Assembly: GCA_965249625.1 (NCBI GenBank)
Contig: OZ252246.1
Location: 2,706,236 to 2,770,235, forward strand
Direction of reading: 5' to 3'
DNA: 64,000 nucleotides
Origin: Nitrospinales bacterium
GTDB taxonomy: Bacteria; Nitrospinota; Nitrospinia; Nitrospinales; VA-1
The position numbers and the translations under genes are program-made. The notes beneath the pieces are model-generated. The model had not been told where the DNA came from, made no database searches, and saw only the letters and a list, made by a program, of their open reading frames with translations. Each line of letters starts with the position of its first letter. The first letter of the stretch is position 1. Positions 3,642 to 14,366 of this stretch are shown here, piece after piece.

Positions 3642-4718
3642 CTAAGTTTTAATCATTTCATAAAGTTCTACATTGTAATACAAGTGATGCCTTCCCAACC
3701 AAAGATCGCCCATGATTCCAGCTTCTTTGAGTTCGTGCAAATGCTTACTGGCGGTTTGAGGGTGAATTTTCAGGGCCGTGGAAAATTGGGTTGGCGTTGT
3801 AAAAAGAAATGAAAAAACATGACTCACAGTTTCAATCGCATTCATCTTAGAATGATTTTTGCGAATAGTTTCTGTCAACCTTTGATACAAACTCATCATT
3901 TGAAAAATTTTTGTTTTTGTTTTAATAGCTTCTGACCTGAATCCTTCCAGCACGAATAAAATATATGTTTCCCAATCCTCAGTTTCTGTTACTAGTTGTA
4001 GGGTTTGGTAATATTGAGGACGATTCCTGTTAAAATAAGCGCTGGTATACAAAACTGGAAAACCCAGTAAACCCTCCTGCACTAACTGAAGGACCAGTAA
4101 TATTCTTCCCGTCCTTCCGTTTCCATCGCCAAAGGGATGAATTGCCTCAAACTGATAATGGGCGATGGCACACCTGATCAGTGGGTCAATTTTCAGATTG
4201 TCCGACCTGTTGACAAAATTTTCCCAATTTTGTATTAACTCGCCTATCCTTGAAGCTATGGGTGGTGTATATGTAATCTCTCCGGTTTTTTTGTTTTGGA
4301 TCCCATTTTGTAGTTTCCTGTAACCAACTTTGGTTTGCATCAGTTTTTCGTGTATTCCCAAAACCAATCTTGTTGATATTGAAAAATCTTTGATATGCCG
4401 CATTGCCCAATTGATCGCCTCTTGATACCTCAAAGTTTCTCTGTCCGGGCCTTTTTGCTCCGACACCGGGATAACCTGGCTCTTCAAAACACTTTCTACA
4501 GTCGTATGGATTTCTTCAATACTTGAGCTTTCTACGGATTCCTTAGTCATGGCCACAGACATTAGAACTTTTGCCTCGGGGATACTAGTACAGTACCCCT
4601 TCAGTTCTCCTATCTCCCGGCTTGCAGAATTAAGCGCCTTTAGTATTGAAGTGGTGTCGAAATCTATCTGGGGTGGCAACAGCTTTAAATTATGTGGTTG
4701 ATTGGGATTAAAATTCAT
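3642..4718 (-). CDS. Fic-domain protein (AMPylase-type fold) with Fic_N-like N-terminus and C-terminal wHTH-like tail
   Basis: 358 aa with the canonical Fic motif HPFGDGNGRTGR. The N-terminal SSSIEEI resembles the [S/T]xxxE[G/N] inhibitory helix, with E in place of G/N. Confidence 0.85.
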   Translation of the reverse strand: MNFNPNQPHNLKLLPPQIDFDTTSILKALNSASREIGELKGYCTSIPEAKVLMSVAMTKESVESSSIEEIHTTVESVLKSQVIPVSEQKGPDRETLRYQEAINWAMRHIKDFSISTRLVLGIHEKLMQTKVGYRKLQNGIQNKKTGEITYTPPIASRIGELIQNWENFVNRSDNLKIDPLIRCAIAHYQFEAIHPFGDGNGRTGRILLVLQLVQEGLLGFPVLYTSAYFNRNRPQYYQTLQLVTETEDWETYILFVLEGFRSEAIKTKTKIFQMMSLYQRLTETIRKNHSKMNAIETVSHVFSFLFTTPTQFSTALKIHPQTASKHLHELKEAGIMGDLWLGRHHLYYNVELYEMIKT

Positions 4719-5625: not shown

Positions 5626-6039
5626 ATGATAAAAAGGAGTCTAAAGTCATGGGTTGCTATGTTTGTCTGTTTTATGTTCGTAGTGTCGGGATGTGCTGGG
5701 CGAGCTGCTAATCCTGTAATGGTTGCTCAGTATGGGGATGACAGGAAATCCTGCGAAGCGCTCCAGATGGCAATGAGCCAAACACAGCAAGAAATTTCAA
5801 GGTTAATTCCTGATACTGAAAAAACAGGCTCGAACGTGGCACTCGGTGTTGCAGGATTATTTCTTATAGTTCCATTGTTTTTTATGGATTTCAGTGAATC
5901 GGAAAAAATAGAAGTTAATGCCTATCGACAACGCTACAATCATTTAGCTCTTATAGCGACAGATAAAAAGTGCGGGGATGACATAGCTCAGATACCCGGC
6001 TTCGAAAAACCAAAGGAAGAGGAAAAGAAAGAGGATTAG
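5626..6039 (+). CDS. small lipoprotein, paralog A
   Basis: 137 aa. Signal peptide with lipobox VSGC, then NPVMVAQ..DDRKSC, a hydrophobic segment and EVNAYRQRYNHL...KKCG. Confidence 0.6.
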   Translation: MIKRSLKSWVAMFVCFMFVVSGCAGRAANPVMVAQYGDDRKSCEALQMAMSQTQQEISRLIPDTEKTGSNVALGVAGLFLIVPLFFMDFSESEKIEVNAYRQRYNHLALIATDKKCGDDIAQIPGFEKPKEEEKKED

Positions 6040-6449
6040 GGGAAGATAGTTTTTACCTCTCTTACCGGCATAATGGAGTGCTCAAATCCACAACCATTTT
6101 GTCTTTCAGTTTTAACTAGATGATTGTTCCGTTTTTGTAGGGCATTTAGCTCTACAGCATCAGCCTTCTTGATATCGGAAAAGATTGAAAAAGGAATAAA
6201 TATTGGGAAGAGGCTCCCTACTACACCTACTCCAAGATTATAGTTCTCGGTATCTTTGATTTCTGGATACCGTTCCCAAATCTCCTCACTAATAGTTTTT
6301 AATTCCAAGGCTATCTCTTTGCAAGACTTCTTTTCGTCACTACTTTGAACTATTTGAATAGGATTCGGATGCCTGCCTGCACACCCGGTGGAGAGTAAAA
6401 GAATTACTAAAAGGAACGCATGACTGAAAGTCTGCAAATTGGTCATCAC
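6036..6449 (-). CDS. small lipoprotein, paralog B
   Basis: 137 aa. Lipobox STGC and the same motif order as paralog A (NPIQIVQ..DEKKSC, hydrophobic segment, ELNALQKRNNHL...NGCG). The stop codons of the two genes overlap (TTAG at 6036-6039). Confidence 0.6.
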   Translation of the reverse strand: MMTNLQTFSHAFLLVILLLSTGCAGRHPNPIQIVQSSDEKKSCKEIALELKTISEEIWERYPEIKDTENYNLGVGVVGSLFPIFIPFSIFSDIKKADAVELNALQKRNNHLVKTERQNGCGFEHSIMPVREVKTIFP

Positions 6450-6790
6450 CCTTCGCTCATTTAGAACTTATCCCAACCCATTATGAGACTTGAGTTTGCC
6501 TGCTAATTTTAAATGATGAGGTGAATGTGAAGAATAAAACACAGATCACTGTAAGAGGAACTAAGAGTTGAACTAGGGATTTCATTGAGTGACTCCTTTG
6601 ATGATTTGAAGGCGCGACCACTATATATCGGCAGAGGGAAATTGCGAAGTGAAATTTCTGGAAAGTATTGCTTGGGTATCAGCGTCTATCGCTCCATTTT
6701 TGGTCTTTCTCTTTTAAAGTGTGTGCATTGCTTCTCCTGCTGTGCCATTGAGTGTGCTATGGAGGTCTTTTGGCGACTTTGAGAGAGAGA

Positions 6791-7023
6791 ACCAGCAGGA
6801 AGACGGAACAGTTGTGGTGCCGGAAGTGTTGCGCCCCTATTTGCACGGGCAGGAAGTTTTAGCAGGGCATCCATAGATCTATAATTTTCATTTTTGCCAT
6901 TCGCGTAACCTTTTTTCAAAGGTCGTGTCAATGCTGAGAGCAGGTTTTCTGTTTCGTTATAAAGCATTGACTTAAAGCAGGAAACCGTCCCTTGACATTT
7001 TCCTGCAAGTAGATAAATATAAA
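6791..7023. repeat. 233-bp direct repeat, copy 2 (orphan serS 3' fragment plus tRNA-Ser promoter)
   Basis: Matches 3390-3622. The serS-derived part has no upstream reading frame. The repeat ends 17 nt before tRNA-Ser(UGA). Confidence 0.9.
6992..7020 (+). promoter_or_regulatory. sigma70-like promoter for the tRNA-Ser pair
   Basis: TTGACA (6992-6997), a 16-17 nt spacer, then TAAATA/AAATAT (7014-7020). This places the start about 15-20 nt before the tRNA at 7041. Confidence 0.5.
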
Positions 7024-7040
7024 CGGGTTCACAATATTCA

Positions 7041-7126
7041 GGAGGGATGGCCGAGTGGTTTAAGGCGGCGGTCTTGAAAACCGTTGAACGAAAGTTCCGT
7101 GGGTTCGAATCCTACTCCCTCCGCCA
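7041..7126 (+). tRNA. tRNA-Ser (anticodon UGA), CCA encoded
   Basis: Acceptor GGAGGGA/TCCCTCC, anticodon loop CTTGAAA, long variable arm, T-loop GGTTCGAATCC, 3' GCCA. Confidence 0.92.
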
Positions 7127-7219
7127 CTCGCTAACTTGGCTGCTGGCCGCAGGGGCAGGTTGCAATGGCCCCTCAGGCGGTCAGCGGGGTTTTGAGGGCA
7201 GGATAAAATATTACTTATT

Positions 7220-7310
<91 letters not shown>

Positions 7311-7582
7311 GAGACCTTTGCATAACCCCGGATTACCCCTTCGGGGCACGAGGGCTTGAGTTGAACATCACGTCTTCGTCACCTTGTTCCTCAGAATGAC
7401 AAATAGCCTTGTATTGTCATTCTGAATGCTTCGGCTTCGCTCAGCACAGGCTCCGTGAAGACGTGATATTTTTCCTTAACCTTCGTGCCCCGAAGGGGTA
7501 TGTGATATCCTCTTCCTTAAACTTCATGCCCCGCAGGGGTAATCTCGCTTTTCTGTTTTTTTTCGACTTACGCAAAGCTCCC
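7311..7582. mobile_element. MITE copy (long variant) inserted at the CCA end of tRNA-Ser(GCU)
   Basis: Starts GAGACCTTTGCATAACCCCGG immediately after the tRNA and ends CGCAAAGCTCCC. Carries the central CAGAATGACAA...TTGTCATTCTG hairpin and nested GCCCCGAAGGGG hairpins. Flanks are TCTCCGCCA and TCTCCGCTT (7/9 match). Confidence 0.7.
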
Positions 7583-7646
7583 TCTCCGCTTCGGGGCATG
7601 AAGGCTGATGAGGGGATCATAACATGGGGCCCAAAAGGTAAGAACT

Positions 7647-8246
7647 TTGAGACGTTTAAAATACATAACCATGCTGGCACTGGTTTTCATGGTGAGTTGC
7701 ACTTACGAAAGCAAGGAAGATATCGCTGGCCTGAAAGAGACCGACATCAGCAAACTGAATATTCCCGAAGGGTCCCGGTCCAAGCCCGTCCAGCAGATTG
7801 AAGCTTCATTGGAAGAAGGTTCAGACAGCTATGCGCCTGACGCAAGCCACCCCAATGTTCGGGAGGGGGTGAAAGTCCAGCGAGCGATTGTCGTGCCGGA
7901 GGAAGCAGAAGGCAAGTGGAAAGCGGTCAAGCTTCTGATCAAGAACAAGAAAGACGAGGGACGCAACGAAATGAAAACCATCACCCTGGGTTCCAGTTTT
8001 GAATTGGAAGATTCGGGAATCAGAATTACAGTGGGCCCGTTTTTACCAAATTTTGTGATGAGCCAGAAGGCTTATACATCTGGCGGAAACGAACTGACTA
8101 ACCCTGCTGTTCAATTAGTGGTTGAACAAAATGGCAAGACCATTTATACAGGGTGGGCATTCGCGAAATATCCCACGATGTATGCGTTCGAGCACGAAGA
8201 TTTTGCTCTGCAGTTGATGGATTACATACCCATCGATGTGTCCTGA
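7647..8246 (+). CDS. hypothetical lipoprotein
   Basis: 199-aa ORF with a TTG start. N-terminus MRRLKYITMLALVFMVSC (signal peptide plus Cys). I do not recognise the family. Confidence 0.55.
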   Translation: MRRLKYITMLALVFMVSCTYESKEDIAGLKETDISKLNIPEGSRSKPVQQIEASLEEGSDSYAPDASHPNVREGVKVQRAIVVPEEAEGKWKAVKLLIKNKKDEGRNEMKTITLGSSFELEDSGIRITVGPFLPNFVMSQKAYTSGGNELTNPAVQLVVEQNGKTIYTGWAFAKYPTMYAFEHEDFALQLMDYIPIDVS

Positions 8247-8360
8247 TCTGTTAGCCGCAGGGGCAGTGGGCAAGGGCTAATTGAGCCGAGAAGAATTATT
8301 GCTCGCCAGAAAGAGCGATTGCTATTTACCTGCGGAGGTACTCCGCTAAAACCCAATTAT

Positions 8361-8437
8361 GCGCCCATGGCTCAGCTGGATAGAGCGACGGTTTGCGGAA
8401 CCGTAGGTCGCAGGTTCGAGTCCTGCTGGGCGCACCA
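8361..8437 (+). tRNA. tRNA-Arg (anticodon GCG by my fold), CCA encoded
   Basis: Acceptor GCGCCCA/TGGGCGC, D-arm GCTCAGCTGGATAGAGC, anticodon stem ACGGT/ACCGT with loop TTGCGGA, T-arm GCAGGTTCGAGTCCTGC. Confidence 0.85.
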
Positions 8438-8446
8438 CATAAAATA

Positions 8447-8484
8447 AGCACTTAGAGAAACTTGTCTCTAGGTGCTTTTTATTT
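8447..8484 (+). terminator. rho-independent terminator after tRNA-Arg
   Basis: Stem AGCACTTAGAGA / TCTCTAGGTGCT (one G-T pair), 6-nt loop, followed by TTTTTATTT. Confidence 0.7.
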
Positions 8485-8877
8485 GTATGGTTATAGGTCT
8501 GTTATGGGCCCACTATAAATATAAAATCATATTTAGTATGGGATTTTTTTTATTTCTAGAAGAGTTGGGTTACATTTGGTTTATCAAACCTTTATCCAGC
8601 GCAACCCTGGAAAATGTTAGTATGGGATTTTTTAAAGGACCAAAATCGTGAAAACAGATTTATTTAAAGGGTTTAATAATATTTTGGGCCAAGAGTGAGT
8701 TCCAAGCAAGCCCTACCTTGCTAGGACCTGAGAAGAATGCCAGAAAAGCTGTTTCAGTGCAGTTGAGGGCAGGTTTCGTTGTTCAATGAAGCGTTTTCCA
8801 CAGAAAAATCATTTCACACCTGAGCGAACATATTTTGTAAAATAGAAATAGGCTTTTCTTCGGGAGTAAATTTCATT

Positions 8878-9831
8878 ATGGCAATAATTTTAGGTGATAG
8901 AGAACTTAAAAAGCTACTGGGCTCAGTAATAATCAATGGTGATGAAAGTTGTGTCCGTCCAAATGCCTATGTTTTGCGGTTAGGGGCTAAGGGAGAGTTT
9001 AAAAACACTAACATAGCCTTTAACATAGGAGGTCAAGATAAGAAAGGTATTAAACTGGCTTCAGGCCACGCCGCCGGTTTATCTTCCCATGAGCAACTGG
9101 ATTTTCGTCGTGAAACTGTACATAAAATTTATCCTAACTGCGATTTATTTGCATACTTGAGTCCGGTTACTGATTTATCCCGCGAAGGTATTACTACTCA
9201 CACCACACAGGTGGATGTTGGTTTTAATGGTATTTTATCTTGGACTATCAATAATACTTCCAATGAAGAAAATCAGTTTTTATTTAAGGAAAAATTATAT
9301 CGATTAACTATTTTTAAGTTGGACCAGGATGAGGAAATGCCTGAAAAGCCTTATGAGGGTGATTATCAAGGTAAGACGGATTACGTTCGCTCTACAAGGA
9401 AGGGCGCACCTCGTGGAATGAAAGAAAATGAATGGGCAACGAGTTATGTAGATGGCTCACCCGAGGACCATTTAAAAAACCTAATTAGTTCGGGTTTCCC
9501 ATGGAATATACTAGGAAAGCAACTCAAGGCAATAGATGGAGAATTAAAAACAGTGACGGAAGAGTATTCAAAAATTTATGATTCGTTACATAATTTGTCT
9601 AAAGAAATAGATGGTCTTCCAAAAATGGTCGAAGATAAAATCAATCAAAAGAAACCTGAGTTGGTATTAGCTTTGGGTGCCTTGATTTTTTTTCTTGTAG
9701 GGGGTGGAATTACTATTTTTACAAATGATAGGGCGGTTAATTTCCTAGATAATTTTGGTTCCTTTGTGGGTATAGGAATCATGGTTTTAGTACCAGGTTT
9801 ATTCTGGTTTACAAGAAAAAGAAAAAAGTGA
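8878..9831 (+). CDS. dCTP deaminase/dUTPase-fold domain fused to a coiled coil and two C-terminal TM helices
   Basis: The N-terminal ~180 aa align by eye to Dcd motifs in order: IILGDRELKKLL, VRPNAYVLRLG, DLSREGI, VDVGFNGILSWTINN. The position of the catalytic Glu (Dcd ...LEFYN) appears to be Thr/Trp. Residues ~215-255 look like coiled coil. The C-terminus has LVLALGALIFFLVGGGITIF and FVGIGIMVLVPGLFWF followed by RKRKK. Confidence 0.6.
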   Translation: MAIILGDRELKKLLGSVIINGDESCVRPNAYVLRLGAKGEFKNTNIAFNIGGQDKKGIKLASGHAAGLSSHEQLDFRRETVHKIYPNCDLFAYLSPVTDLSREGITTHTTQVDVGFNGILSWTINNTSNEENQFLFKEKLYRLTIFKLDQDEEMPEKPYEGDYQGKTDYVRSTRKGAPRGMKENEWATSYVDGSPEDHLKNLISSGFPWNILGKQLKAIDGELKTVTEEYSKIYDSLHNLSKEIDGLPKMVEDKINQKKPELVLALGALIFFLVGGGITIFTNDRAVNFLDNFGSFVGIGIMVLVPGLFWFTRKRKK

Positions 9832-9941
9832 TTTTTTGAATTAGAGTTCTCGGGAGGTTACATTTAGGCTCTGTTATGGTTGGTCTACTCCGTTGCAATT
9901 AGAATGTTGGATTGATTTTTTAAATATATAGGAGTGCGTTA

Positions 9942-10139
9942 ATGACTAAAAGAGAGAAACGGCCGAAAATGGTTTTCCGCAAGTTTTTACAGGACAACCA
10001 GAAGCAAATGACCGATTATATAGCACATGTCGAAGCTTCAGAAAAATATGAACGGGAACCCTGGATGTTAGGGTCCGACCCTGAAGGACTCGTCACCCCC
10101 GAATCCATTGTCGAACTCAACCAGCTCGGCGACGGCTAA
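9942..10139 (+). CDS. hypothetical small protein (65 aa)
   Basis: ATG ORF preceded by TAGGAG. No recognisable family. Followed immediately by the post-stop motif CGCTCGCCGCAGGGGCA. Confidence 0.3.
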   Translation: MTKREKRPKMVFRKFLQDNQKQMTDYIAHVEASEKYEREPWMLGSDPEGLVTPESIVELNQLGDG

Positions 10140-10343
10140 CCGCTCGCCGCAGGGGCAGAGTAGGGCTCATTTTCTGATGTTGATTTTCAGTAAAATATTC
10201 AAAAGGTTGAATTTAAAAATCGCAGGTGCTTTATTTTTTAATTATGTAAATTCAAAATTACCAAGGGTATAATTGTATTACACCTTAGCTTTAAGTATAT
10301 ATATGAGGTGTTGATAAATTTTTCTCTGTAAGAGCATTAAAAA

Positions 10344-11086
10344 ATGACCGAACACCCTAACCTTAAAAATGCACCGATAACGGAAGCGGCGATAGAGTTT
10401 AGGTTCCAAAATAAAATAGCAGAATTCCAAATCCTTGAGTCTGTTCATTCAGCATTTGAGAAGGACCTCCCTGAAAAAAAATAATTCACCGTGGTAAAGT
10501 AGACTTCGCTTTTGGGAAAGATAAGCCAGCCGCATCACAAGCCGAGTATCTGGGCCCAGAAGGTATTATTTTTTATTCTGTGGATAAGAAAAAAATAATT
10601 CAGTTAAAAAGGGATAGCTTTTCATTTGTCTGGGTAGGGAAATATTCTAAATGGGAAGAATTTTCATCTAAAGCTTTGGAACTTTGGAATAAAGCAGATA
10701 AAATATTGAAAAGAAATGCTTTAATTAGAATAGGCTCTAGATTTATTAATAATCTTAATATTCCTCACAATGTAGAATTAAAGGAAATTATAGTAAACTC
10801 ACCAACTCCTCCAAAAGGCGCCAGTTTTGAGATGGCAGGGTTTTTAAATCAAATGACCCTTTACGATGATGATAATTCTGTTTCTGCTATTGTTTATTTA
10901 GGTTTAGACCGTAATAGAATAAAAGAACCAAAACTCCCTGTTATCTTTGATATTGACGTGTTTAGCCTGGACGTAATTCAAAATGGAAATACTAAAATTA
11001 ATGAAAACTTGAATAAATTAAGAGTTTTTAAGAATTCAATATTTTTTAACTCCCTTACACCAAAGGGAATGGAGCTATATCAATGA
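10344..11086 (+). pseudogene. TIGR04255-like protein interrupted by a frameshift in an A8 run
   Basis: ATG 10344 encodes MTEHPNLKNAPITEAAIEFRF... (family-typical N-terminus as I recall it) and stops at 10482-10484. The continuation (KKIIHRGKVDFAFGK...; tracked from 10580) is in another frame. One extra A in the run 10474-10481 joins them. Confidence 0.5.
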
Positions 11087-11601
11087 TTACTCTGAAAGAA
11101 AGAAGCATGTTGCCTTTTGAGTCAGACGAAATTAGCTTTTCCGGTTCTTCAGTAGTTACAGTTGATTTAGAAGAATTGATTGAGGATTCCCCTGTTAGGG
11201 AGCCAAATTCATTTGCCGTTAGAGAAAAAATTCATTTGCTTCTTGAAGAAATTGATCAAGTTTATGCAGGTTCTCAAGGGGAAAATGCTGATAACTATGG
11301 AGGTAAAGCAGGTAATATTAATTCCTTTAGAAACATTCGCGCATTTATTCGTTTAATTCCCGAGTCGTTGTTAGAACTAATTCCTACAGTACTTTTAGAG
11401 CCAGATGGTTCTTTTGCCTTGGATTGGGAACATGAAAATGCAGATACTTCCTTCGCGGTCAGTTTTGGCTCAAACGATGAATTATTCTTTGCAGGGCTTT
11501 TTTTAAATGGGGCTAAACAAAGAGGTGTTGAAATTTTTAATAGATTTTGGTTTCCCGATCCCATTAGTAAAAATATATTAAGGGTCATAAAAGGGAAATA
11601 A
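11083..11601 (+). CDS. hypothetical protein (172 aa)
   Basis: ATG overlaps the upstream stop (ATGA at 11083-11086), which suggests translational coupling. No recognisable domain. Confidence 0.5.
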   Translation: MITLKERSMLPFESDEISFSGSSVVTVDLEELIEDSPVREPNSFAVREKIHLLLEEIDQVYAGSQGENADNYGGKAGNINSFRNIRAFIRLIPESLLELIPTVLLEPDGSFALDWEHENADTSFAVSFGSNDELFFAGLFLNGAKQRGVEIFNRFWFPDPISKNILRVIKGK

Positions 11602-11602
11602 T

Positions 11603-11881
11603 TTGAATTTTAGTTCAGTTTCAGATCAAGAAGAGTTGTCTAGATTTCTTTTTGACAATCAAGACTTTACAGAAAGCTCAGGAAATATCCGATGGAATAG
11701 GCTGATGCCAATATTTTGTGAGCAACTTGATAGATTAGAAACCTCAATATTCAGGACAGCTACTTTAAAGCAAGATAAAGAAATATGGGAGTTAGGGGAT
11801 GCTTTTGCAGGTTTAGAGCGAAAGCCCCCAAAAGCTATAGCTGTCCTACAAGCAGAACAAATTAGAAATAAGTCGAACTAG
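11603..11881 (+). CDS. hypothetical protein (92 aa)
   Basis: TTG start 1 nt after the upstream stop. Same strand and compact spacing. No recognisable domain. Confidence 0.35.
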   Translation: MNFSSVSDQEELSRFLFDNQDFTESSGNIRWNRLMPIFCEQLDRLETSIFRTATLKQDKEIWELGDAFAGLERKPPKAIAVLQAEQIRNKSN

Positions 11882-12171
11882 GGGTTCGATAAATATTGCT
11901 TCCAATTTAATTTTTTAGAATTGTTGGGGTCGGGACCAACGTCAGCAGCACTTTATTAGCGGACGTTTTCTCGACTTTTTTTGTTAGAATACCCCTTGGC
12001 AGGGGAGGCTGTGATATTCCCATCATTACCTTTATGCCCCAACGGGGTAAATTGAGTAAGCGTGTGAAACAATGCCGAGACAACTCTTTGCCAGCAAACA
12101 AGAGCTATTACCCCTCCAGGGAACGAAGGCTAAGGAGAGATATCACATGCACATTGGCCCTGCGCCTGGCA

Positions 12172-12261
<90 letters not shown>

Positions 12262-12426
12262 CCATTCGCCATGGAGGCAAATTGATATAGCCTGTTTGGC
12301 TGCGAGGGCAATTGGGCACGAGATAAAGATATTGCATTTTATTAGCGGAGATTCTCCGCCACTGCTCGCCGCAGGGGCAGGTTAAGCCGAAAGAACTTTG
12401 CTAAAGTGGTGCGTCACTTAGAAAAA

Positions 12427-12560
12427 GAGAGATCCTTCTTCGCCAAAGGCTCATCAGGATGACAAAATGGCGTTTCTTGTCATTCTGAACGTGTGATATT
12501 CCCAACACTAGCTTCATGCCCCGGAGGGGTATTAGTGAAGAATCTCGTTTTTAAGGTCTC
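12427..12560. repeat. degenerate MITE copy (both termini eroded)
   Basis: Contains CAGGATGACAAAATGGCGTTTCTTGTCATTCTGAAC, a GCCCCGGAGGGG hairpin and AGTGAAGAATCTCG...AAGGTCTC, but lacks the CTTTGCATAA terminal blocks. Confidence 0.55.
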
Positions 12561-12593
12561 ATATTTTTATTGGTTAAAATATTATTGGCAGTT

Positions 12594-12690
12594 TTGTTGG
12601 GCCTCACGCAACGTGGCTTTGTGAAACCCGTCAGATCCGGAAGGAAGCAGCGGTAGCAAAATCCCATATGTGCTGTGAGTTCCCCAACAA
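12594..12690 (+). ncRNA. ffs: signal recognition particle RNA (4.5S type)
   Basis: Terminal helix TTGTTGGG.../...CCCCAACAA encloses the conserved domain IV sequence GTCAGATCCGGAAGGAAGCAGC. It sits directly upstream of dnaX, a common arrangement. Confidence 0.85.
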
Positions 12691-12764
12691 TTCTGCCTTT
12701 GAATAATATCCCCGGGCGACCCGCGGTCAGCGGTTTGCCTGCAAATCGTCGGTCTTCTGAAATA

Positions 12765-14366
12765 ATGGAATTCCAGGTTTCAGCCCGAAAATGGCGCCCC
12801 CAGAAATTCAGCGAATTGATTGGGCAGGAGCATATTGTCCGAACCCTTTCCAACGCTATTGAACTGAACCGTGTTTCGCATGCGTTCCTGTTTTCCGGAA
12901 CACGCGGTGTGGGTAAAACCACCACGGCGCGGATTCTTGCGCGGGTGCTCAATTGCGAAAAAGGACCGACTATCGAGCCTTGCGGTACCTGCAGTTTTTG
13001 TGTGGAAATTACCGAAGGCCACTGCATTGATGTTCAGGAAATTGATGGGGCTTCCAATAATGGGGTGGCCGAGGTGCGCGATCTCATTGACAACGTGCAA
13101 TACGCCACGTCCTCTGCCCGTTACAAAGTCTATATTATCGATGAAGTTCATATGCTTTCAAAAAACGCGTTCAACGCATTGTTGAAAACGCTGGAAGAAC
13201 CACCCCCTCGCGTTATTTTCATTTTTGCCACCACCGAACTGATCAAGATTCCGGACACCATCCTTTCGCGTTGCCAATGTTTTGAGTTCAAACCGTTATC
13301 GAATGTCCAGATCACCAAACAACTGGAACTGATTTGCGGGCAGGAAGGAATTCAAATTGATGAAAAAGGGTTGGAAGAAATTTCCAAAGTTGGGGCTGGC
13401 AGTATGCGTGATGCGCAAAGTCTATTGGACCAGGTTATTGCTTACAGCGGCAAAAATATCGATACCGATTCGGTAGAGTCGGTGCTCGGTATTGTTGGGG
13501 ACACCACTCTTGAGCTTTTCGCCGAACGTCTCATAAAACGGGAACCGGCTGAACTGATCGCTCTGGTCCAGGAGGTCGCCAATCAGGGTAAAGACCTGGG
13601 CCTGTTTTGCCGGAGTGTGATGGAATATTTAAGAAACCTGCTGATGGTCAAAGTTTCGCGCAATCCGGAAAGCCTGATCAACGCGCATACCTGCAACATG
13701 GAGGCTTTGAAAAAACAGGCAGAGGGATTCGATGCCGATGAGTTGCAACAAATGTTCACCGTTCTTTCCCGTGCCGAAGCGGAAATGAAACGAAGTTCCC
13801 TGGCGCAGATGGTTTTTGAGATGGCTATTCTGAGGCTGACGGAAACCCGGCCTTTTAAAAATATTGATGACCTCATCCACAAGATCAACCAGGTTGAAGT
13901 TCAGCCAGCCCGACTGGTCACGCCGTCACCGACAGCGCAAAATGATTCGAGCGTAACACCCGCGAAAACCCAACCGGATAACGGTTCTTTCGATTCCTCG
14001 ATCTGGAACAAGATCCGCCAGGAAGTTTCCCGAAAACGACCGGCTTTCGAACATTATCTGGATAAATGCCAGGTTCTCGCGCTGAACGAAAAAGAAATTC
14101 AGTTAATGTTTTCAGATTCCTTCACCCTTGAAATGGTTGGGAGTCCGGAAAATGTTCAGTTCATCAAAGATATGGTCAAATCAGCCAGCGGCCATGAGGT
14201 ACAGGTGATCTTGAAGCAGGGCAAGGTGAAGCCCACTTCATCGGGCCCTTCTTCAAGTGCGCAGGAAAAAAAAAACTTAACTAACGAAAACCAGAGCAGG
14301 CAGAAAACAGAATCGGCAATTATTCAGGACGCTCTGGATATTTTCGGGGGCATTGTGGTGAAATGA
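12765..14366 (+). CDS. dnaX: DNA polymerase III subunit tau/gamma
   Basis: MEFQVSARKWRPQKFSELIGQEHI, Walker A GTRGVGKTT, a CxxC..CxxC zinc module, IDEVHML. The track start at 12675 would overlap the SRP RNA, so ATG 12765 is preferred. Confidence 0.93.
   Translation: MEFQVSARKWRPQKFSELIGQEHIVRTLSNAIELNRVSHAFLFSGTRGVGKTTTARILARVLNCEKGPTIEPCGTCSFCVEITEGHCIDVQEIDGASNNGVAEVRDLIDNVQYATSSARYKVYIIDEVHMLSKNAFNALLKTLEEPPPRVIFIFATTELIKIPDTILSRCQCFEFKPLSNVQITKQLELICGQEGIQIDEKGLEEISKVGAGSMRDAQSLLDQVIAYSGKNIDTDSVESVLGIVGDTTLELFAERLIKREPAELIALVQEVANQGKDLGLFCRSVMEYLRNLLMVKVSRNPESLINAHTCNMEALKKQAEGFDADELQQMFTVLSRAEAEMKRSSLAQMVFEMAILRLTETRPFKNIDDLIHKINQVEVQPARLVTPSPTAQNDSSVTPAKTQPDNGSFDSSIWNKIRQEVSRKRPAFEHYLDKCQVLALNEKEIQLMFSDSFTLEMVGSPENVQFIKDMVKSASGHEVQVILKQGKVKPTSSGPSSSAQEKKNLTNENQSRQKTESAIIQDALDIFGGIVVK

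Follow-up and report, generated by a model that had tools for sequence, protein, structure and literature searches.

What is encoded by a solitary, foreign-looking gene lodged between two tRNA genes of a Nitrospinales bacterium, and what does it do for the genomes that carry it? The window, that is, the whole stretch of 64,000 nucleotides analysed here (contig OZ252246.1 of assembly GCA_965249625.1, positions 2,706,236 to 2,770,235 of the forward strand), holds this gene at positions 8878..9831 of its + strand, where the listing of open reading frames (ORFs) gives an ATG start and a product of 317 amino acids followed by a stop, and where homologues and an AlphaFold2 (AF2) model support the gene as a whole. 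A preliminary description made from the letters alone had taken the product for a membrane-anchored protein with the fold of dCTP deaminases (Dcd) and dUTPases, and had put it forward as a candidate single-gene defence system or effector. The first half of that reading can be held with high confidence: a Dcd/dUTPase-fold domain that lacks the deaminase glutamate is followed, in one polypeptide, by a conserved linker, then a coiled coil and finally an anchor of two membrane helices. A role in conflict with phages or other mobile elements is held with lower confidence.

The N-terminal domain, including its C-terminal lid, covers residues 1-175 (8878..9402, + strand), as delimited by profile matches, structure comparison, alignment and residue counts. 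The motifs on which the preliminary description relied are all found in the 317-aa ORF and in the order given there: IILGDRE (residues 3-9), VRPNAYVLRLG (26-36), DLSREG (99-104), VDVGFNG (112-118) and the strand SWTINN (121-126). The NCBIfam model TIGR02274 (dCTP_deam) matches residues 4-172 over positions 1-178 of its 180 (E = 1.1e-8, 35 bits, the equivalog cutoff being 92.8), and Pfam DCD (PF22769) scores 15.9 bits with the window protein alone, below its gathering threshold of 27; several divergent relatives pass that threshold (P0138, 46.6 bits; P0160, 52.3; P0143, 40.2). Against the PDB, phmmer retrieved the archaeal thermostable dUTPase P45 (9ln0, E = 6e-6) and the Sulfolobus tokodaii dUTPase (2yzj, E = 1e-5), and a profile of 42 family members matched 2yzj over residues 3-163 with E = 3.5e-13. 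The AF2 model, built on 120 homologues, has a mean predicted local distance difference test score of 86.8, above 90 over residues 1-150. The Foldseek comparison that the preliminary description had called for placed the archaeal dUTPases 9ln0 and 8y1w first (E ~1e-12, TM-score 0.92-0.93 on the target, root-mean-square deviation 1.7 Å), followed by the S. tokodaii dUTPase, bifunctional DCD-DUT enzymes and E. coli Dcd, with the classical dUTPases lower; 70 PDB chains were matched at E<=1e-3, and the best 50 of the 70 are all Dcd/dUTPase enzymes. Because profile, fold and divergent-member matches agree, the membership of the protein in the Dcd/dUTPase superfamily, to which Pfam dUTPase (PF00692) belongs as well, is secure.

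Residues of the active site were mapped by alignment with the Dcd of E. coli K-12 taken from its annotated genome, and were counted over 171 full-length relatives, the divergent subfamily included. The catalytic Glu138 of the E. coli enzyme, which is the residue mutated in PDB entries 1xs4, 2j4q and 2v9x and whose counterpart in Methanocaldococcus jannaschii is E145 (2hxd, 3gf0), aligns with Thr123, so that the suspicion that the catalytic glutamate is missing was well founded. Among the relatives this position holds Thr in 149, Gly in 7, Ser in 5, Leu in 2, four other residues once each and Glu in a single one. The remaining landmarks are all present: the motif-III Asp, the phosphate-binding Ser/Thr-x-x-x-Arg and the C-terminal Tyr/Gln lid. 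E. coli Arg115 corresponds to Arg102 (conserved in 170 relatives) and Asp128 to Asp113 (168), Thr98 is kept in 167, and in the lid Tyr159 is found in 166, Tyr163 in 161 and Gln164 in 159, with Ser172 and Arg174 within the same range of 159-166. An aromatic residue (F/Y) occupies position 116, where the sugar is discriminated, in 168 of the 171, which suggests specificity for deoxyribose.

Since the catalytic Glu is replaced by Thr, dCTP deamination would not be expected. This bears on the possibility that the protein is a membrane-bound dCTP deaminase that starves phages of dCTP in the manner of DcdV/AvcD, for which one may point to the weak TIGR02274 match and to the name 'deoxycytidine triphosphate deaminase' that Joint Genome Institute (JGI) annotation gives to those homologues that carry a name. 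Yet the glutamate shared by the E. coli and M. jannaschii enzymes is retained in only one relative of 171, the score of 35 bits lies far below the equivalog cutoff, and DcdV/AvcD belongs to an unrelated, Zn-dependent cytidine deaminase (CDA) fold, so that this scenario is most improbable. The protein does not qualify as a dCTP deaminase (EC 3.5.4.13) on either the residue or the score, and the automatic name 'dCTP deaminase', judged by these residues, is wrong for the family. The precedent of dCTP-deaminase-based nucleotide depletion, invoked in the preliminary description, is in turn an analogy and not a homology. DcdV/AvcD is a soluble protein in which the CDA-fold deaminase follows an N-terminal P-loop kinase and which is controlled in Vibrio by the AvcI RNA; neither a CDA deaminase nor a P-loop kinase domain was found in the window protein with Pfam, NCBIfam or PADLOC, and the likeness is confined to the concept of a single protein that acts on the deoxynucleotide pool.

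The comparison with characterised enzymes of the superfamily is more informative. With Dcd and the bifunctional DCD-DUT enzymes (E. coli 1xs1, Mycobacterium tuberculosis 2qxx, M. jannaschii 1ogh) the protein has the superfamily and the trimer-type fold in common and, with E. coli Dcd, the Arg (R115 = R102), the Asp (D128 = D113) and the C-terminal lid; it differs from them in having Thr for the Glu (E138/E145), in falling below the TIGR02274 and Pfam DCD cutoffs and in being membrane-anchored. The archaeal Dcd-type dUTPases (Pyrococcus/Thermococcus P45, 9ln0; T. pacificus, 8y1w; S. tokodaii, 2yzj/2zdc) are closer: they have the same beta-fold (TM-score 0.81-0.93) and the same order of motifs, SxxRxG / (V/I)DxG(F/Y/W)xG / YxGxYQG, and they likewise lack the deaminase Glu, having Ala (as in S. 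tokodaii) or Met in its place, and keep the Asp. As judged by alignment, then, the residue pattern is that of a Glu-less, Asp-retaining Dcd-type dUTPase. The archaeal enzymes are, however, soluble housekeeping proteins of ~155-170 aa, whereas the 317-aa window protein adds a 140-aa stretch of linker, coiled coil and two-transmembrane (2-TM) anchor and is not a small soluble single-domain enzyme. Sequence identity is 20-25%, and the window family is bacterial, rare, foreign in GC content and mobile. The preliminary description had left binding, hydrolysis and sensing equally open as altered chemistries. The loss of the Glu on which this rested stands, but a dUTPase-like pyrophosphatase is now specifically to be expected, the closest relatives being Glu-less archaeal dUTPases. 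The likely activity would be hydrolysis of a deoxynucleoside triphosphate (dNTP) to the monophosphate (dNMP) and pyrophosphate (PPi); the substrate cannot be read from the sequence and would be dUTP or a non-canonical, phage-type dNTP. That the protein would be an active, trimeric, cytoplasm-facing dNTP pyrophosphatase is held with moderate confidence, the homotrimer being predicted from the superfamily and from the heptad pattern of the stalk.

Beyond the lid, the protein departs from its enzymatic relatives, and the coiled coil, the two hydrophobic helices and the basic tail announced in the preliminary description were all recovered. Residues 176-208 (9403..9501, + strand) form a family-specific linker recognised by invariant alignment columns (GAPxGM, EW, PE, SG[YF]P, the last followed by W), whose mean top-residue frequency (0.75 over residues 176-215) matches that of the catalytic domain (0.76). 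The linker leads into a stalk, residues 209-258 (9502..9651, +), where AF2 predicts the first part of one long helix running from 209 to 282; in the heptad register over residues 209-262, 81% of the a/d positions are hydrophobic, and across the family the length of the stalk clusters at 53, 57, 64 and 68 residues. Two hydrophobic helices, predicted to be transmembrane, follow at residues 262-282 (9661..9723, +; Kyte-Doolittle peak 2.52 at 262-280) and 292-312 (9751..9813, +; peak 1.97 at 293-311, within an AF2 helix spanning 284-316). They are separated by a loop of ~10 residues, and the first 260 residues contain no such segment. The protein ends in a polybasic tail, RKRKK (residues 313-317, 9814..9828, +; TRKRKK with the preceding residue), which is predicted to be cytoplasmic and whose median charge in homologues is +3. 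The membrane-helix call rests on Kyte-Doolittle hydropathy and the AF2 helices, and the pattern of two segments recurs in 115 of 120 homologues. Because there is no signal peptide and the tail is positive, a topology with both termini inside is expected, and the model would place a cytoplasmic enzyme on a stalk ~7-10 nm off the membrane. A linker, a coiled coil and a 2-TM anchor on a Glu-less dUTPase-like domain are indeed an unusual architecture, as had been claimed, and make the protein a new architectural variant of a known superfamily, its function being predicted from these features.

This architecture invites a different scenario, in which the trimer would be a nucleotide-gated abortive-infection effector: it would sense a phage-specific or infection-specific deoxynucleotide, or a phage dUTPase-binding protein, and closure of the lid would be transmitted through linker and stalk to a six-helix bundle that depolarises the membrane or makes it permeable. 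The lid of Dcd/dUTPase enzymes becomes ordered over the bound nucleotide, and TM hairpins at the C-terminus are frequent effector modules of defence proteins; here the lid runs straight into a linker as conserved as the core, and then into stalk and hairpin. One relative, P0132 (L059, 625-1671), has a Dcd-like domain to about residue 190 and then, where other members have the coiled coil and TM anchor, a TIR_2 domain (E = 8.5e-18), which would be a classic TM/TIR effector swap, and the constitutive co-transcription of some copies with nuo genes (see below) is tolerated as it would be for a latent effector. Nevertheless, the TIR fusion was seen once, on a contig of 1.7 kb where it may be either a genuine effector swap or a product of chimeric assembly, and it was given little weight and dropped as strong evidence, retaining the value of a weak hint. 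Moreover, the TM helices are the least conserved part of the protein (mean top-residue frequency 0.40-0.49), which fits a plain anchor, an effector role also being possible, and the invariance of the catalytic Asp speaks for turnover rather than binding alone. Such a gated effector is a distinctly unlikely explanation. Its more explicit version, a stand-alone immune protein whose dUTPase-fold sensor responds to the binding or turnover of dUTP, hydroxymethyl-dUTP/dCTP or similar, or to capture by a phage dUTPase-binding protein, and opens the six-helix bundle so that the cell is killed or arrested, would be slightly less likely again.

The conservation profile can also be read in terms of protein contacts. 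dUTPases are known as moonlighting signalling proteins, and phage dUTPases derepress the Stl repressor of staphylococcal pathogenicity islands (SaPI). Phage dUTPases are also mentioned in one source (PMC11846896). The window protein might on this account be a scaffold in which catalysis is irrelevant, the dUTPase fold serving protein-protein signalling or acting at the membrane as a decoy for phage dUTPase-binding proteins. The family does have specific invariant surface residues in excess of the minimal catalytic set (E103, W122, E138, W186 and the SGYPW motif), but the full catalytic and lid set is under strong purifying selection and no conserved partner gene exists, and we regard the scaffold as very unlikely.

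The family is small and sharply bounded. A word-indexed search recovered at least 253 full-length homologues, nearly all of 315-390 aa, 45-57% identical and aligned over the full length, and a profile search of 1.84 billion cluster representatives gave 306 matches at E<=1e-3, of which 65 reached E<=1e-30, a large share of the matches being fragments, with ordinary Dcd enzymes lying outside its reach. In a set of one genome per species (185,579 species) at least 48 loci were found in at least 12 phyla, all in metagenome-assembled genomes (MAGs), this count being a lower bound limited by the search pattern. The hosts include Nitrospinales, Verrucomicrobiota, Bacteroidota, Gamma- and Alphaproteobacteria, NC10/Methylomirabilota, Planctomycetota, Acidobacteriota, Calditrichota, Sumerlaeota, Hydrogenedentota, Desulfobacterota, Binatia and Lachnospiraceae. 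A second family of ~218 aa (P0254 and P0293-P0335, 44 clusters known from metagenomes only, with loci L064 and L065) combines a DCD domain that passes the Pfam threshold with a short coiled coil and a single C-terminal TM helix; Gly stands at the Dcd Glu position in 40 of the 44 and the Asp is kept in all 44. Because this family repeats the theme of a Glu-less domain with coiled coil and TM helix, the membrane tethering of Glu-less Dcd-like domains is, on the comparison of the two, a recurring design. Two further odd architectures, P0131 (integrase-N, DCD and Nudix) and P0160 (with an IS1-like tail), were set aside as looking like chimeras or disruptions.

The claim that the gene is a single-gene unit of foreign appearance was borne out. 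In an all-against-all BLAST of 818 ORFs from the 48 loci no neighbour cluster was found in more than three loci, so that no neighbour is conserved and a multi-gene system or toxin-antitoxin pair was rejected. In 38 of 40 loci the gene has a lower GC content than the DNA beside it, by 7.4 points on average and by more than 5 points in 32 loci (Wilcoxon p = 1.4e-7). The closest genomic homologue, in a Nitrospinales MAG (L001), encodes a protein 84% identical, and blastn of its 21 kb against the 64 kb of the window yields a single block with 86% nucleotide identity, window 8802-9836 to L001 9924-10957, which comprises the gene and the 76 bp upstream of it, and no further match. These 76 bp (8802..8877, + strand) are a leader that travels with the gene and the sole non-coding DNA that the two loci have in common. 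The leader contains a 31-nt block identical between the two (8821-8851), a ribosome-binding site, GGGAG, at 8862-8866, 11 nt ahead of the ATG, and a promoter-like pair assigned by eye, TTCACA (8813-8818) and TAAAAT (8838-8843), which a consensus promoter scan did not report. An upstream RNA or riboswitch of the AvcI kind was rejected, since Rfam gave only tRNAs and the signal recognition particle (SRP) RNA and homologues in nuo operons begin 3 nt after nuoF. Several copies are disrupted: that of L041 is cut short, those of L044-L047 are split or frameshifted, P0160 ends in IS1-like sequence, and L026 (Ca. Foliamicus) carries two copies 3 kb apart (6124-6916 and 10001-10978), one intact and the other near-identical but missing its central third, a sign of recent duplication and decay. 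We hold with high confidence that this is an accessory gene that stands alone and was acquired horizontally.

The places into which it has been inserted are diverse, and several lie in or near defence loci. In a Verrucomicrobiia MAG (L022) the gene (9282-10232) sits between the methylase HmaB (6190-9231, E = 6e-116) and the ATPase HmaC (10103-13036, E = 2e-88) of a defence system of the Hma type; at L043 it directly follows a Type IIG restriction-modification (RM) enzyme (E = 1e-188), and at L002 it is two genes from the restriction endonuclease (REase) subunit of a Type I system. The 144 ORFs within two genes on either side of 43 loci also include a cyclase and an E2 protein of a cyclic-oligonucleotide-based antiphage signalling system (CBASS), AbiEii, PbeA (twice), mad2 (twice), Type IV restriction enzymes (twice), PDC-S01 and PDC-M38A. 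In the window itself a full-length SoFic homologue (3642-4718, - strand; PADLOC E = 2.7e-99; Pfam Fic_N, Fic and SoFic-like_C) lies 4 kb upstream, in a region of 0.35-0.42 GC. A member of the ~218-aa family (L064) is found between Type ISP RM and SIR2 genes and a directly adjacent Fic gene (6774-7952). Other copies occupy mobile settings: L063 is a region resembling an integrative and conjugative element (ICE), with a TrwC relaxase, IS1, an integrase and a SLFN/AlbA_2 protein, L061 has an insertion sequence and eCIS_core proteins nearby, and L057 is a genuine phage contig in which the gene occupies a typical moron slot, with the large terminase gene (5642-7567) on one side and the portal gene (9279-10922) on the other.

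Still other settings are of a plainer kind, and it is here that the main competing explanation has to be weighed: the protein could be a housekeeping or 'house-cleaning' membrane dUTPase, an alternative Dut that lowers dUTP near a membrane-attached replisome and is occasionally transferred, with no part in conflict. At L049-L056 the gene lies between nuoF and nuoG in nuo operons, where MNT-type and DUF4160/DUF2442 pairs are also present; at L062 it is a small insertion between ffh and a gene of the major facilitator superfamily (MFS) on one side and the rpsP operon on the other; and another member of the ~218-aa family stands between gyrB/parE-like and gyrA/parC-like genes. These placements, the bona fide archaeal dUTPases as closest structural relatives, the conserved catalytic residues and the absence of any need for a partner gene would all suit such an enzyme. 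Its extreme rarity and patchiness (at least 48 of 185,579 species genomes, 306 clusters of 1.84e9), the consistently foreign GC content, the lack of synteny even with the 84%-identical homologue, the frequent decay of copies and their placement in defence systems, in an ICE-like region and in the moron slot of a phage would not, and a housekeeping dUTPase is, on balance, an unlikely explanation. As an observation apart, in two related metagenomic lineages (for example L053, 8735-20954) small, selfish-looking genes stand between nearly every pair of nuo (complex I) genes: the Dcd-like TM gene after nuoF, MNT-type nucleotidyltransferases with 150-aa partners and repeated DUF4160/DUF2442 pairs, with an 897-aa Lcl_C protein in one lineage.

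The explanation that we tentatively prefer, as a real possibility still short of an even chance, is that the locus is a self-contained mobile unit of one gene and its leader, encoding a membrane-tethered trimer of the Dcd/dUTPase fold that hydrolyses dNTPs and has an accessory role in conflict. The gene would move horizontally on its own with its short leader. A homotrimer of the beta-fold would face the cytoplasm, having lost the deaminase Glu but retained the dUTPase-type catalytic Asp, the C-terminal lid and the Thr and Arg that bind phosphate. It would stand off the inner membrane on a parallel coiled-coil stalk some 45-65 residues long and be anchored there by a C-terminal hairpin of two helices, whose basic tail would lie in the cytoplasm. 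It would convert dUTP or a non-canonical, phage-type dNTP to dNMP and PPi, with no deamination of dCTP, and its role would be in anti-phage defence or in exclusion between mobile elements rather than in housekeeping nucleotide metabolism. No conserved antitoxin or regulator accompanies the gene and co-transcription with nuo genes is tolerated, from which it follows that the protein should either be harmless at rest, through a benign specificity for dUTP or non-canonical dNTPs, or be latent until triggered.

A number of observations weigh against the conflict role. No model of PADLOC-DB v2 matches the protein (0 families at E<=1). Ordinary housekeeping genes account for many of the neighbours, and some copies are co-transcribed with nuo genes or lie between gyrase/topoisomerase genes, which a benign housekeeping-like enzyme would fit equally well. 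In a PADLOC control, 159 families were found for the 144 near ORFs and 196 for 97 ORFs more than 6.5 kb away, a comparison that gives no discrimination; generic models dominate the count (IscS matching SspA/DndA, PolA matching a DRT model), and by such family counts an enrichment in defence islands was not demonstrated. A rough count finds a bona fide defence gene within two genes in ~8-10 of 43 loci and in ~2 of 23 of the far set, a difference that is suggestive only and not significant. A tblastn search of 50,697 phage genomes and 72,556 plasmids found no homologue, and IMG/VR holds one among 2.9 million viral contigs; prophage or plasmid cargo as the main habitat was rejected on these grounds. 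Some frameshifted copies may be errors of (long-read) assembly, and the preferred explanation does not account for the tethering of a nucleotide hydrolase to the membrane on a long stalk. The preliminary description's proposal of a defence role therefore fares unevenly: some loci do adjoin defence genes, and the neighbourhood survey it had suggested brought out L022, L043 and L002, but there is no PADLOC match, the flanking genes are mixed, many of them housekeeping, and the control does not demonstrate an enrichment. The circumstantial case for a mobile conflict gene is good, though not conclusive, and the gene is a reasonable but unproven phage-defence candidate.

The manipulation of nucleotide pools is a major theme of bacterial immunity, and the validated defences of this type employ CDA-fold deaminases, HD dGTPases and nucleosidases; we know of no Dcd/dUTPase-fold protein validated as defence. 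DefensePredictor lists dUTPase among the nucleotide-modifying domains predicted to be defensive, none of which was experimentally validated (PMC13092281), and since the text of that paper is silent on a membrane anchor or a Dcd-like subfamily, the identity of this candidate with the window family is not established. Another source (PMC13001434) describes a stand-alone defence gene in which a nucleotide-hydrolysing cytoplasmic P-loop domain is fused to membrane helices. This offers a possible functional analogy of a conceptual kind only: the fold differs, and no sequence relationship or PADLOC match connects the two. In the literature searched, no description was found of a membrane-anchored Dcd/dUTPase protein in defence.

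The surroundings of the gene in the window agree with the tRNA-adjacent, AT-rich islet of the preliminary description. The islet (8440..12170, unstranded) has a GC content of 0.367 against 0.449 for the whole window, with values per 500 bp of 0.33-0.39 over 8500-12000 and ~0.45-0.53 on either side; the gene itself is at 0.369. It is bordered by tRNA-Arg (8361-8437) and tRNA-Ser (12172-12261) and lies within a cluster of stable-RNA genes, with two further tRNA-Ser upstream and the SRP RNA (12595-12692) just before dnaX-ybaB-recR. No integrase or tRNA-derived att repeat was found in the window, and an integrated element with att repeats is unsupported, the repeats present being paralogous tRNA-Ser genes and short elements resembling repetitive extragenic palindromes (REP).

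The second half of the islet (10580-11881, + strand) holds three abutting or overlapping ORFs, possibly an uncharacterised module or one in decay. The first belongs to family TIGR04255 (E = 4.6e-20) and, covering profile positions 75-247 of 252, looks N-terminally truncated; those at 11083-11601 (172 aa) and 11603-11881 (92 aa) match no family in Pfam, NCBIfam or PADLOC. Four copies of a short GC-rich element (consensus ..GCCGCAGGGGCAG) are present, at 7139-7158, 8247-8266, 10139-10158 and 12361-12380, each copy just past the end of a gene or tRNA and one of them inside the islet right after a 65-aa ORF; it looks REP-like or terminator-like and may mark boundaries of insertion. Between tRNA-Ser(GCT) and the next gene, 7331-7625 is filled with dense nested inverted repeats built on CCCCTTCGGGGCA, and a palindrome of 35-39 nt (TCAGAATGACAA…TTGTCATTCTGA) follows both tRNA-Ser(GCT) (7388-7426) and tRNA-Ser(GGA) (12451-12489), two genes that are 91% identical over 74 nt. 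The RNA at 12595-12692 (+), identified by Rfam as the small SRP RNA of bacteria (70.7 bits, E = 1e-14), overlaps the 5' end of the maximal dnaX ORF (12675..14366), so that the true dnaX start must be downstream of the listed GTG. Further upstream, two convergent ORFs (5626-6039, +, and 6036-6449, -), each encoding a lipoprotein-like product of 137 aa, overlap by 4 bp at their ends and appear by eye to be paralogues (both ..GCAGR..NP..V/Q..KSC..).

Two related and sharply bounded families of membrane-tethered, Glu-less Dcd-like proteins are thus defined, one of ~320 aa with two TM helices and one of ~218 aa with a single helix. Both behave like mobile accessory genes, sometimes found inside defence systems, an ICE-like region or a phage, and this membrane-tethered dUTPase-like family is rare, undescribed and horizontally mobile. 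The gene is small, single and easily tested. Should the sensor-effector scenario be true, it would be the first defence to use the Dcd/dUTPase fold and would connect deoxynucleotide sensing directly to a membrane effector. If the family is defensive, it would bring in an enzymatic fold that is new to bacterial immunity and perhaps a new spatial logic as well, that of a dNTP hydrolase held ~7-10 nm from the membrane; if it is not, it would represent an unrecognised form of dUTPase.

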